Sequence record: NC_054912.1
Origin: Escherichia phage vB_EcoM_F1
Length of the DNA: 64,000 nucleotides
Direction: 5' to 3' (one strand)
Shown: piece after piece, positions 2,388 through 26,141 of the stretch
How positions within the stretch are numbered: the first letter of the stretch is position 1
Layout of the letters: each line of letters starts with the position of its first letter
Notes under the pieces: model-generated
What the model saw: only the letters and a program-made list of their open reading frames with translations
Databases searched by the model: none
Told to the model about the DNA's origin: nothing
Made by a program: the position numbers and the translations under genes

Positions 2388-3671
2388 ATGGCTAAAATCA
2401 ACGAACTTCTGCGCGAATCAACCACAACGAATAGCAACTCAATCGGTCGCCCAAATCTCGTTGCTTTGACTCGCGCTACCACTAAATTAATATATTCTGA
2501 CATTGTAGCAACGCAAAGAACTAATCAACCTGTTGCTGCTTTTTATGGTATCAAATACCTTAACCCAGACAACGAATTTACGTTTAAAACTGGTGCTACT
2601 TACGCTGGCGAAGCCGGATATGTAGACCGAGAACAAATCACAGAATTAACAGAAGAGTCTAAATTAACTCTCAATAAAGGCGATTTATTCAAATATAATA
2701 ATATCGTTTATAAAGTATTAGAAGATACACCATTTGCTGATATTGAAGAAAGTGATTTAGAATTAGCTCTTCAGATTGCAATTGTTCTTTTAAAGGTTCG
2801 TCTATTTTCTGATGCTGCAGTAACAAGCAAATTTGAAAGCTCTGATAGCGAAATTGCGGATGCTAGATTCCAGATTAATAAATGGCAAACCGCAGTTAAA
2901 TCTCGTAAACTTAAAACTGGCATTACAGTTGAATTAGCACAAGATTTAGAAGCAAATGGATTCGATGCTCCTAATTTCTTGGAAGATTTGCTTGCAACCG
3001 AAATGGCAGATGAAATCAATAAAGATATTCTGCAGTCTTTGATTACAGTGTCAAAACGTTATAAAGTTGCAGGAATTACTGATACTGGATTCATTGATTT
3101 GAGTTATGCATCTGCACCTGAAGCGGGTCGTTCATTATATCGAATGGTATGTGAAATGGTTTCACATATCCAAAAAGAATCAACTTATACAGCAACGTTC
3201 TGTGTTGCTTCAGCTCGTGCTGCTGCGATTCTTGCTGCATCAGGTTGGTTAAAACATAAACCAGAAGATGATAAATATCTTTCACAAAATGCCTACGGGT
3301 TCTTAGCTAATGGTTTACCGCTTTATTGCGATACTAACAGCCCATTAGATTATGTAATCGTTGGTGTAGTAGAAAATATCGGTGAAAAAGAAATTGTTGG
3401 ATCAATTTTCTATGCTCCGTATACAGAAGGTCTCGACTTAGATGACCCTGAACATGTAGGTGCATTTAAAGTTGTTGTTGACCCAGAAAGTTTGCAGCCA
3501 TCTATCGGTTTATTAGTTAGATATGCTTTATCAGCAAATCCTTACACCGTAGCAAAAGATGAAAAAGAAGCAAGAGTAATTGATGGTGGAGACATGGATA
3601 AAATGGCGGGTCGTTCAGATTTGTCTGTTTTATTAGGTGTTAAGCTACCAAAAATTATCATTGATGAATAA
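2388..3671 (+). CDS. 24: Capsid vertex protein gp24
   Basis: 427-aa ORF directly after gene 23, gp23-paralog position and size as in T4. Confidence 0.93.
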   Translation: MAKINELLRESTTTNSNSIGRPNLVALTRATTKLIYSDIVATQRTNQPVAAFYGIKYLNPDNEFTFKTGATYAGEAGYVDREQITELTEESKLTLNKGDLFKYNNIVYKVLEDTPFADIEESDLELALQIAIVLLKVRLFSDAAVTSKFESSDSEIADARFQINKWQTAVKSRKLKTGITVELAQDLEANGFDAPNFLEDLLATEMADEINKDILQSLITVSKRYKVAGITDTGFIDLSYASAPEAGRSLYRMVCEMVSHIQKESTYTATFCVASARAAAILAASGWLKHKPEDDKYLSQNAYGFLANGLPLYCDTNSPLDYVIVGVVENIGEKEIVGSIFYAPYTEGLDLDDPEHVGAFKVVVDPESLQPSIGLLVRYALSANPYTVAKDEKEARVIDGGDMDKMAGRSDLSVLLGVKLPKIIIDE

Positions 3672-24389: not shown

Positions 24390-24722
24390 TTATTTTACTA
24401 CTTTCCAATGCTGCATGTCAAGTTTACCAACTTTTTTCATCTTCTCAATTAAGCGTTCGGCACGTTGGCGAGCTGTAACATAATGCCATTCGCCTAATTC
24501 ATTTTGTTCAATTTTTCCAACGATTACTGTATTCAATTCATAAATCCAACCGGTAAAGAAATTATGAACTTGAATTGTAAAGGTGAAATCTGTTCCCATA
24601 CCTTCTGTTGTTTCTACTTCAATAATATCACCTTCAACTGCCATTAAGAACCACATAGTTTCATTATATGCACCGTTGAAGCATTTAGTTTTAACCGCAG
24701 CGTTCAGATTAATCGTTTTCAT
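24390..24722 (-). CDS. Hypothetical protein (30.7-like)
   Basis: 110-aa ORF. Confidence 0.55.
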   Translation of the reverse strand: MKTINLNAAVKTKCFNGAYNETMWFLMAVEGDIIEVETTEGMGTDFTFTIQVHNFFTGWIYELNTVIVGKIEQNELGEWHYVTARQRAERLIEKMKKVGKLDMQHWKVVK

Positions 24723-24746
24723 TTTATTCTCCTTTGTTTGTGTAAG

Positions 24747-24775
24747 ATAATACTATCACAAAGGAACCATACTGT
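24747..24775 (-). promoter_or_regulatory. Candidate early promoter (TTTACA-17-TAGTAT) upstream of 30.7-like gene
   Basis: minus-strand TTTACA, 17-nt spacer, TAGTAT, then AAGGAG before ATG. Confidence 0.4.
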
Positions 24776-24832
24776 AAACAACTTTATGCAATCTTTGGAA
24801 AATAAAAAAGGACTCCCGAAGGAGTCCTCAAC

Positions 24833-25051
24833 TTATGCTTTCTGCTTACCAAAACGAGAAGCATCATCTCGAAGAACCGCACGTGCTCGGCGCATGATCT
24901 TCTCAACAGTTTGATTGATACGAGAGTTCGACCCACGCTTGTAGCCAGCGCGTTTAGAATCACCAACTTTCTTTTCAACTGCTTTCTTTGCTTTAGCTTG
25001 TTTTGCCATTATAAATTCTCTTTTAAATGAAAATGCAGGACTTATTGGCAT
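24833..25051 (-). CDS. Small basic hypothetical protein (30.8/30.9-like position)
   Basis: 72-aa Lys/Arg-rich ORF followed by a terminator hairpin at 24808-24827. Confidence 0.5.
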   Translation of the reverse strand: MPISPAFSFKREFIMAKQAKAKKAVEKKVGDSKRAGYKRGSNSRINQTVEKIMRRARAVLRDDASRFGKQKA

Positions 25052-25409
25052 TGCCTGCGCAAGCCCTCAAGGGGAACATAGGTTTTTGGATATTTAACGA
25101 CCAGGATAACCATAAACCCGTCATCATACCTTATAGCTCTTATCTGTTGCACACCGTTAGCTTAAAGGTTCCGGGTTCGATTTCTCGAGGATAAGATATA
25201 TATACTGATGGATATATAGGCCTTGAGGCGTACTCCCGATTGGCCATCACCTCGGGGTAGCATGCACTTGCCGCTATAAGAATAACATTCAAGAGGTACA
25301 CCGTAAAACTGCCGGGGTCTTAAAACTATAATGATTCGCAAATCATTAATCAGACAGTTCGACGGCTCCTCGATTTTAGCTCACACTAAGGCAGTGAATC
25401 TCCAATAAA
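25052..25409 (-). other. ORF-free segment with GC-rich patches and long-range complementary blocks; possible structured RNA or gene remnant
   Basis: No ORF of 60 aa or more on either strand; stops in all minus frames; complementary blocks such as ccctcaagg (25064-25072) and ccttgagg (25221-25228). Confidence 0.3.
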
Positions 25410-25658
25410 TTACTTCAATGTTACCACAAAGTGGCGAACTGCTTTTCGTGCAGCAGAAGCCAAAGGCTTAGCATATTTAAGTTCATCTTTTTCCTGAAGC
25501 TCAGCAGCTAATGCAGTTTGAGCAGGATTCAGATGTTTGAAATAACACAGGATTTCAAGAGCTTCGGCTTCAACATCAATAGATGCGCCATAGTTTTCGT
25601 GACCATTATTCCATGCGTTTCGTTGCAGTTCAAGAGCGTGTTGTAATTGTTTAATCAT
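25410..25658 (-). CDS. rIII: rIII lysis-inhibition accessory protein
   Basis: 82-aa ORF, T4 rIII size and position next to gene 31. Confidence 0.8.
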   Translation of the reverse strand: MIKQLQHALELQRNAWNNGHENYGASIDVEAEALEILCYFKHLNPAQTALAAELQEKDELKYAKPLASAARKAVRHFVVTLK

Positions 25659-25805
25659 TTAAAAATTCTCGTTAGAGATTAAAACTCGGTAGTCACGTTC
25701 TTCTGAATTTCATCTTCTTTCGACAGATCTCTCAGTTGTAGACTACCACATAGAATTGTTCGGTTAACTTATTATTCCGACACCCAATTCATATTATTAT
25801 TTATA

Positions 25806-26141
25806 TCACTTATAAAGACACGGAATAGCTTTATAGTGACAGGTAACGAATTTTTGTTTAATTTCTTTTGGCTGCTTAAGACCCAGAGCTACAAAAGGAT
25901 GCGGAACATTTCGAATTTGACCAACTGGAAGAGAAGTCAAATCACCAACTTCGCAGAAACCTTCAGGAACATCAGGACCGACAGAGTGAACTACACACAG
26001 TTCAGGAACTTCACCTTGAACACGTTTACCGATAATAAGTCCTGATTCTGTAACTTCTTCATCACCGGCTTGTGCAGGTTCAGAAACTAAAATAACATAT
26101 TCACCGACAGCACGAATTGGTAGCTGTTGTACTTCAGACAT
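25806..26141 (-). CDS. 31: Co-chaperonin gp31 (GroES analogue)
   Basis: 111-aa ORF, T4 gp31 size/position. Confidence 0.9.

Follow-up and report, generated by a model that had tools for sequence, protein, structure and literature searches.

A structured RNA with a four-way junction and a kissing loop in the rIII-30.9 gap of Escherichia phage vB_EcoM_F1, with relatives at a second locus of T4-like phages

In the genome of Escherichia phage vB_EcoM_F1 (record NC_054912.1), of which a stretch of 64,000 nucleotides (nt), hereafter the window, was analyzed, a long non-coding gap separates gene rIII from gene 30.9, and within this gap positions 25130-25280 of the minus strand almost certainly encode an independently folding RNA. 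The window is a segment of a Tequatrovirus genome, and its positions 24700-25800 are 100% identical to Escherichia phage vB_EcoM_FN. Every gene around the element is carried by the minus strand:

25806-26141, minus strand: gp31
25410-25658, minus strand: rIII, the gene upstream of the RNA and on the same strand (phrog_1457, E = 2e-43; annotations of related records)
24833-25009, minus strand: 30.9, coding for a basic protein of 58 amino acids, the gene downstream of the RNA and on the same strand (phrog_1427)
24808-24829, minus strand: strong intrinsic terminator 3' of 30.9 (terminator scan)
24390-24722, minus strand: 30.8

Homology with T4 gp30.9 (58 amino acids) and with other homologues places the start of 30.9 at 25009 (MAKQ...); an in-frame ATG further upstream in its open reading frame (ORF), at 25051, is not supported by homology. 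The non-coding gap therefore measures 400 nt (25010-25409), and not the 358 nt given by a first-pass annotation of the window, which had rightly seen that the gap was long. That annotation had also called the gap ORF-free, which it is not, since minus-strand ORFs of 34-59 amino acids are present, none of them conserved; its patchy base composition (local GC of 0.35-0.575 versus ~0.35 window-wide) and the sequences quoted from it were confirmed. The equivalent gap in T4 is 244 nt long, and alignment of the window to T4 revealed an extra block of ~155 nt in the window. Family members occur at two loci, the rIII-30.9 gap and the uvsY operon, and the parts of the window copy, with the evidence for each, are as follows:

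25130-25280, minus strand: the structured RNA module in full, extended closing helix P1 included (precisely this block is missing from T4; covariance-model matches of 167 and 160 bits; covariation)
25273-25280, minus strand: P1 5' strand, CUUAUAGC (perfect inverted repeat I5; the inner 4 pairs covary, with AU, UA, GC and CG types)
25270-25272, minus strand: P2 5' strand GGC, pairing with GCC at 25219-25221 (near-invariant)
25262-25269, minus strand: J2/3, AAGUGCAU, unpaired (AAG-N-GCAU kept in both locus groups)
25228-25261, minus strand: P3 hairpin, with the apical hexaloop UGAUGG at 25244-25249 (changes on both sides at 9 of 13 pairs)
25222-25227, minus strand: J3/2, CUCAAG (together with the P2 3' strand, the segment quoted as 'ccttgagg' in the first-pass annotation)
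25197-25218, minus strand: P4 hairpin (I10), whose loop CCAUCA at 25206-25211 kisses the P3 loop
25190-25196, minus strand: P5 5' strand UCUUAUC, pairing with GAUAAGA at 25138-25144 (both-side changes at 3 of 7 pairs; I2 overlaps P5)
25177-25188, minus strand: P6 hairpin UCGA-GAAA-UCGA, with a variable apex (both-side changes at 3 of 4 pairs)
25151-25176, minus strand: P7, ACCCG / CGG-U-GU, with the 15-nt loop GAACCUUUAAGCUAA at 25157-25171 (both-side changes at 2 of 5 pairs)
25145-25150, minus strand: J7/5, GCAACA, unpaired and nearly invariant
25130-25137, minus strand: P1 3' strand, GCUAUAAG (partner in I5; inner-pair covariation)

In the predicted fold, P1, P2-P3, P4 and P5 meet without unpaired linker bases in a perfect four-way junction, and P5 leads on to P6 and P7 through a three-way junction. 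Loop-loop pairing of the P3 and P4 hexaloops yields a kissing helix of 6 base pairs, by which these two arms are clamped next to each other, and an internal loop is formed where J2/3 (AAGUGCAU, 25262-25269) faces J3/2 (CUCAAG, 25222-25227).

That this is a structured RNA is strongly supported by covariation. RNAalifold, run on a plain MAFFT alignment of 17 distinct copies, predicted 43 pairs, 15 of which show changes on both sides. A covariance model (R1) was built and then recovered further copies, including the divergent ones of Escherichia phage EcS1 and Yersinia phage fHe-Yen9-01. Among 26 distinct sequences, 99.4% of the pair cells hold standard pairs, and both-side changes are found at 25 of 47 pairs, as compared to 7.6 +/- 1.8 in shuffles, none of which (0/500) reaches 25. 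When the 3' partners were moved by 1-3 columns as a slide control, no more than 4 pairs with both-side changes were obtained. The 6 apical nucleotides of P3 and P4 are Watson-Crick complementary in all 30 of 30 distinct sequences, in six versions: CGAUGG/CCAUCG, UGAUGG/CCAUCA (the version of the window), CUAUGG/CCAUAG, CAAUGA/UCAUUG, UGCAUU/AAUGCA and UGUAUU/AAUACA. A C/U change seen in the P3 loop, and the G/A change that accompanies it in the loop of P4, are explained by this helix.

The helices differ in how they vary. The outer pairs of P1 change from genus to genus yet stay complementary (as judged by eye in a cross-genus alignment), P2 shows a single both-side change, to GGU/ACC in fHe-Yen9-01, and the P4 stem of the window carries a 2-nt UA insertion. 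Most copies at the rIII locus have GAAA or GUAA as their P6 loop, and those at the uvsY locus have U-rich loops there, for which reason a GNRA tetraloop in P6 was rejected as a defining feature. The best-conserved bases are unpaired ones, namely AAG-N-GCAU, the P7 loop GAACCUUUAAGCUAA, which is nearly invariant in both locus groups, and GCAAC. Overall, ~54 of the 141 positions of the RNA are strictly conserved, long single-stranded stretches among them. Candidate pairings picked out by eye, of the P7 loop with J2/3 or J3/2 and of UGCA with UGCA, involve bases that are invariant or whose changes are uncompensated.

The first-pass annotation had suggested a structured RNA as one possibility for the gap, and the suggestion stands for the central 151 nt, through pairs other than those it had named (P1, which is I5, and P4, which is I10, with I2 overlapping P5). 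The two long-range complements it had pointed out do exist, as the perfect 8-nt inverted repeat I4 (ccctcaagg at 25064-25072 with ccttgagg at 25221-25228) and the 7-nt inverted repeat I8 (tcgagga at 25185-25191 with tcctcga at 25367-25373), but they are no more than chance would supply, since by our own arithmetic about one perfect 8-nt complement is expected per 360 nt, and comparison does not support them. Both were rejected as conserved structures: the bases of I8 belong to P6, which covaries locally, and the complementarity of I4 is 7.11/8 within genomes versus 7.01/8 between genomes.

Pairing also differs between the strands, standard pairs making up 99.4% of pair cells on the gene-sense strand versus 94.8% on the antisense strand, owing to 57 G-U cells. 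On comparative grounds, the G-U pairs thus identify the gene-sense strand as the RNA strand. Folding of single sequences was uninformative on either strand (z = -1.0 to -1.9). The reading to which we give the least credence of all is that of a degraded or very small protein-coding gene, with a peptide beginning MANREYASRP. An ORF of 27 amino acids is indeed intact in many Klebsiella and Escherichia phage copies and annotated in several records, but it ends after 13 amino acids in Serratia phages and after 4 in fHe-Yen9-01, and in the window it is frameshifted by the 2-nt insertion in P4. The variable columns over this ORF fall 12/14/12 by codon position, with no third-position bias, the AUG falls within the kissing loop, and conservation is greater for the element than for the adjoining real genes. 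For want of a conserved frame and of any codon-position bias, a coding gene or gene remnant was rejected, and with it the earlier proposal that the gap holds the remains of a deleted ORF; strand asymmetry and the non-conserved ORF together therefore mark the element as an RNA and not a gene remnant. In several public records, parts of the RNA bear the label of a hypothetical protein or of a rho-independent terminator (PQ537377 2521-2625, MN395284 1483-1587, OL960580 630-668), annotations that are probably spurious, and a 2010 GenBank record of phage LZ9 spans the element without annotating it.

By BLAST, the block was found in 406 phage records, and some part of the gap was matched in 992; there is one place per record among the matches listed, and a single place in nearly all records overall. 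The family, ~140-150 nt in length, is with near certainty confined to T4-like phages of Enterobacterales. Tequatrovirus carriers include vB_EcoM_FN, slur03, LZ9 and JS98. The same rIII-30.9 gap holds the RNA in Jiaodavirus, Marfavirus, Karamvirus, Moonvirus, Kanagawavirus, Muldoonvirus and Roskildevirus, the remainder of the gap being mostly unalignable between these genera. In every case the RNA lies on the sense strand of the genes upstream of it, at distances from the rIII stop and the 30.9 start that vary widely between genera. Across genera, identity to the window copy is 79-94% for the RNA, as compared to 66-75% for rIII, 57-76% for 30.9 and 58-73% for gp31; these values show greater conservation of the element than of the adjoining genes and, by the same comparison, purifying selection on the RNA.

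Searches beyond these phages delimit the family further. No remote copies were detected in RNA-less rIII loci, T4 included, with a broader covariance model (R2), E. coli genomes gave no match at E <= 10, and a pattern of the conserved ends had no match in 185,579 bacterial and archaeal species genomes. Viral-contig and metagenome collections yielded additional copies from T4-like phages only. A metagenome scan with a looser pattern returned 88 stretches, of which 14 contained the RNA, the others being, by eye, G+C-rich chance matches in soil contigs. The short pattern CCCRGANCC...YGGTGNGCAACAGAT also matches a set of near-identical G+C-rich soil contigs (L079-L158); none of them matches the RNA model, and they are therefore false positives for the RNA.

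Comparison with T4 and T4-like genomes, which the first-pass annotation had proposed, confirmed both the lack of the block in T4 and compensatory changes among relatives. In Yersinia phage phiD1, the flanks are 100% identical to the window and the RNA is missing. At the insertion point, which lies between two neighboring structures that we call modules A and B (listed below), close relatives carry three alleles: an empty site (T4), a ~45-nt cassette and the 151-nt RNA. The ~45-nt cassette, seen in wV7 and WG01, is hairpin-like in appearance and unrelated to the RNA, and it aligns to ~25130-25285 of the window. Since T4 and many relatives lack the RNA, it is dispensable, and the lack of it in phiD1 and the three alleles at one point therefore make it, as far as these genomes tell, an exchangeable cassette.

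A cassette of this kind might also be a DNA-level element, such as a miniature inverted-repeat transposable element (MITE), the boundary of a recombination cassette or a protein-binding site, in which RNA structure would be incidental. The terminal inverted repeats (I5), the insertion/deletion polymorphism with three alleles at one site and the presence at two loci would fit such an element. We consider it extremely improbable, given that it is single-copy in each genome, that its pairing is strand-asymmetric because of G-U, and that seven internal helices and a loop-loop helix are kept by compensatory change; the supposed terminal repeats, moreover, behave as a covarying helix whose sequence is not the same from genus to genus. 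A MITE-like mobile DNA was rejected on the single place per record (among the matches listed, and in nearly all records overall) and on the one covariance-model match in the window.

The second locus was reached from short BLAST matches to the P7 region, which led to full-length covariance-model matches in ~20 records, scoring 80-83 bits with R1 and 111-120 bits with R2. The carriers are Klebsiella phage vB_Ko_K41P2 (Slopekvirus), Yersinia phage JC221, Cronobacter phage GAP161 and Klebsiella phage Olmo (Pseudotevenvirus), and the family members lie at:

1100-1244 of locus L169: uvsY-locus copy
1191-1338 of locus L170, minus strand: uvsY-locus copy
1501-1649 of locus L172: uvsY-locus copy
601-746 of locus L173: uvsY-locus copy

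Here the RNA is found downstream of uvsY/uvsY.-2, on the same strand, within a 3' untranslated region (UTR) of ~350-400 nt that ends at a bidirectional terminator facing the convergent uvsW.1/uvsW; in K41P2, GAP161 and Olmo, no gene follows on the strand of the RNA. P3, P4, P5 and the kissing loop of these copies have largely different sequences with complementarity kept, P5 being wholly replaced by UCCGUG/CACGGA, and AAG-N-GCAU, GGAACCUUUAAGCUAAC and GUGCAAC are nearly unchanged, a pattern suggesting that the conserved single-stranded core is what does the work. Because it occurs at a different locus that has no downstream same-strand gene, the RNA would be an autonomous module and not a leader of 30.9. 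A role tied to rIII or 30.9 is contradicted by the uvsY-locus copies, to judge from gene order, and the earlier proposal of a UTR regulating rIII or the 30.x genes fell with it. Between the uvsY-locus RNA and the bidirectional terminator there are another ~150-180 nt of unannotated non-coding sequence (L169 1280-1480; L172 1650-1830), in which a further structured element could lie.

A scan for promoters and terminators found no promoter-like or terminator-like site between rIII and 30.9, and a strong terminator follows 30.9; the gap would therefore be transcribed within the rIII-30.9 message. A late-promoter sequence, TATAAATA, was read upstream of rIII and is annotated in related records. 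A promoter belonging to the RNA itself was rejected, the AU-rich, TATAAT-like strings upstream being the genus-variable P1 5' strand, and none of them passing the scan. Lacking its own promoter and terminator, the RNA would be transcribed in the rIII-30.9 message or, in other genera, in the message of the uvsY operon. At 24794-24877 of the minus strand, sub-threshold Rfam matches to Atu_C8 (E = 4e-4) and Phe_leader overlie the hairpin-plus-U-run that was flagged as the terminator of 30.9; homology to either family was rejected.

The RNA is embedded in a message, with no sign of a promoter or terminator between rIII and 30.9; it keeps to the sense strand throughout and has other conserved RNA structures next to it (module A, module B and a hairpin that we call d). 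On these grounds it could be a cis-acting mRNA element that blocks exonucleases or positions RNase cuts for the stability of the cistrons, or that modulates translation of 30.9. We regard this as unlikely. A simple hairpin would suffice for such a task, and the many strictly conserved positions and the tertiary contact go far beyond what it needs; the distances to the rIII stop and the 30.9 start are variable, and no same-strand cistron follows the uvsY-locus RNA.

The neighboring structures in the rest of the gap are the following:

25286-25409, minus strand: module A, the 5' part of the gap, a predicted long imperfect hairpin (identical in T4; fold z = -1.7)
25081-25124, minus strand: module B, a candidate H-type pseudoknot with an A-rich loop 3 (also in T4, locus L002 ~3109-3162)
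25060-25077, minus strand: hairpin d, GUUCCCCUUGAGGGCUUG, the 'ccctcaagg' of the first-pass annotation (only copy in the window)
25010-25059, minus strand: stem GCAGG...CCUGC and the ribosome-binding region of 30.9 (from the sequence; identical in T4)

Module A, whose predicted hairpin includes UUAAUGAUU-UGCG-AAUCAUUA, is common to T4 and its close relatives, absent from other genera and outside the conserved RNA family. Module B, with stems S1 (25120-25124 with 25097-25101) and S2 (25108-25111 with 25081-25084), gave 84 nhmmer matches comprising 40 distinct sequences and is found in most of the T4-like rIII-30.9 gaps sampled. Its paired cells amount to 79.6% versus 66.8% when shuffled, with a covariation score of 0.349 versus 0.133, counts that a 1-nt shift of the alignment lowers; the case for a conserved pseudoknot is accordingly a moderate one. 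Relative to the four-way-junction RNA, its position is downstream in some genera and upstream in others. Like the T4 gene 32 operator and other phage mRNA pseudoknots, it is a candidate pseudoknot with an A-rich loop 3 in an intercistronic leader, a likeness of layout for which no homology is claimed.

Hairpin d, of the form GU(A/U)CCC-loop-GGG(G)CUUG, stands beside the RNA at the rIII and uvsY loci alike (L169 ~1256-1275) and is also present in T4. Its own stem changes from CCC/GGG to GCC/GGC (by eye). Complementarity of hairpin d to J3/2-P2' amounts to 6-8 out of 8 positions, at a spacing of 0-91 nt between hairpin and RNA, and it could be taken as a pointer to a switching mechanism. It bears on the possibility of a classical riboswitch, a 5' UTR aptamer controlling 30.9 and the genes downstream, with hairpin d perhaps as its expression platform. 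The architecture is aptamer-like, with a closing P1, conserved junction bases and kissing loops, and hairpin d follows the RNA in a position where alternative pairing is conceivable. We nevertheless hold a classical riboswitch to be very unlikely: the uvsY-locus copies have only convergent genes and no same-strand gene downstream, so that a conserved, covarying, aptamer-like fold is found without a consistent 5' UTR position, and no Rfam riboswitch matches. Furthermore, the spacing of hairpin d varies over the range given above, module B changes sides between genera, and hairpin d has no U-tract and is kept in the RNA-less T4. The complementarity, at 7.11/8 within and 7.01/8 between genomes, shows no co-evolution. 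As for an expression platform, neither a terminator nor pairing with a Shine-Dalgarno sequence was found, with hairpin d as a possible candidate.

Kissing loops and conserved junction bases are typical of purine and lysine riboswitches. The RNA resembles the aptamers of these in its closing P1, its parallel arms paired loop to loop (over 6 base pairs in the lysine riboswitch) and its conserved junction bases; it differs in having a four-way junction and an extra three-way domain, in matching no Rfam model, in the lack of a detectable expression platform and in having family members without a downstream gene.

None of the 4227 covariance models of Rfam 15, against which the first-pass annotation had also proposed a search, matched anywhere in the window at gathering thresholds or on the element at E <= 10, and four divergent relatives had no match at E <= 5. 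ARAGORN found no tRNA or tmRNA genes in the window, bearing out the earlier statement that the element is not a tRNA. That it is not an intron interrupting a gene was likewise borne out, group I and group II introns being rejected because the flanks are non-coding and contiguous in T4 and no Rfam intron model matches. Searches of the open-access literature by gene name, topic word and sequence string brought up no description of the RNA, and an earlier description elsewhere is possible.

The main rival to the reading that we prefer is a new class of small ribozyme, self-cleaving or otherwise, which would cleave the polycistronic message between its cistrons at any site of insertion. Small ribozymes often sit in phage intergenic regions. 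The compact fold with its perfect four-way junction and loop-loop clamp, the near-invariant bases of the junction and internal loop, the independence of location (two loci) and the patchy distribution would all suit a ribozyme. We nonetheless judge it unlikely, because no ribozyme of Rfam 15 matches even at E <= 10, no cleavage-site motif is recognizable, and a length of ~145 nt exceeds that of most self-cleaving classes. In the scans of all 4227 families, none of the hammerhead, hairpin, twister, twister-sister, pistol, hatchet, HDV-like and glmS classes gave a match.

Among these, the hairpin and twister-sister ribozymes are similar to the RNA in a perfect four-way junction that sets arms side by side, a conserved internal loop in one arm and independence of location, and the VS ribozyme is similar in its size of ~150 nt, its kissing loop and its three-way junctions; the RNA differs in that no model matches it and no catalytic or cleavage-site motifs are recognizable. 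The analogies to both aptamers and ribozymes are architectural only.

Closer in kind are the orphan structured non-coding RNA motifs (PMC5737381, PMC2864571, PMC10690425), which are likewise defined by covariation and conservation and borne by phages. The present family differs from them in that it is not in Rfam 15 and belongs to the best-studied group of phages, even though T4 itself is without it. T4-type phages also carry promoter-early stem-loop (PeSL) cassettes, described by their authors as composite DNA motifs of an early promoter and a stem-loop (terminator), many per genome (PMC2839356, PMC4122927); the 2014 PeSL paper mentions neither rIII nor 30.9. PeSLs share with the RNA that they are short non-coding modules of variable regions, present or absent between close relatives and apparently shuffled. 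The RNA, however, lacks a promoter, is single-copy and has a complex fold that covaries as RNA, and a PeSL cassette was rejected for the missing promoter-like site and the single copy.

We tentatively favor a factor-binding RNA module, an assignment modeled on architecture and distribution that we put somewhat short of an even chance. Such a module would work on its own and not through neighboring genes; the junction and the kissing loop would hold the conserved single-stranded core in a fixed geometry, and this core would offer a protein of host or phage, or a small molecule, a specific surface to bind. The RNA would act as a component of a ribonucleoprotein (RNP), a decoy or a sponge, possibly after trimming from the mRNA, and may give an accessory, host-dependent advantage, as is suggested by its patchy presence among near-identical phages. 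As a protein partner, gp30.9 was rejected, having no Pfam family or PDB relative and being present in T4, which lacks the RNA.

Several points weigh against a factor-binding module, or against the structure on which it builds. The mechanism is drawn from architecture and distribution only, and no candidate partner protein co-occurs beside the RNA at both loci. Hairpin d, which accompanies the RNA at both loci and is ~7/8 complementary to J3/2-P2', could point to a switching mechanism. The single-sequence folding energy is unremarkable (z = -1.9), and the pair counts were made on alignments fitted to the model; this favors structure, a concern lessened by the independent MAFFT alignment and the slide control. 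The family is also narrow and shallow, and because the effective sequence number of the models is ~1, some of the conserved 'unpaired' bases may merely have lacked the time to diverge.

T4-like phages rank with the best-studied of all viruses, and phage therapy collections make wide use of them. Nevertheless, ~400 sequenced isolates carry an RNA that has no name in the databases and is of riboswitch- or ribozyme-grade complexity. The detail of the fold, with its four-way junction, six kissing-loop versions and invariant single-stranded core, is sufficient for the design of mutants, and near-isogenic phages with and without the RNA occur naturally, as do two unrelated loci. At minimum, the family merits an Rfam entry, and the spurious ORF annotations over it need correction. 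It is possible, if doubtful, that the RNA represents a new functional class, be it a ribozyme or an RNA that specifically binds a protein or metabolite, and a movable, RNA-only accessory gene of T4-like phages, which would, for example, neutralize or sense a host factor such as a defense system and would have gone unnoticed because the reference phage T4 lacks it. If true, whether as a new ribozyme, a ligand sensor or an RNA-only accessory factor, it would be a notable addition to phage and RNA biology.

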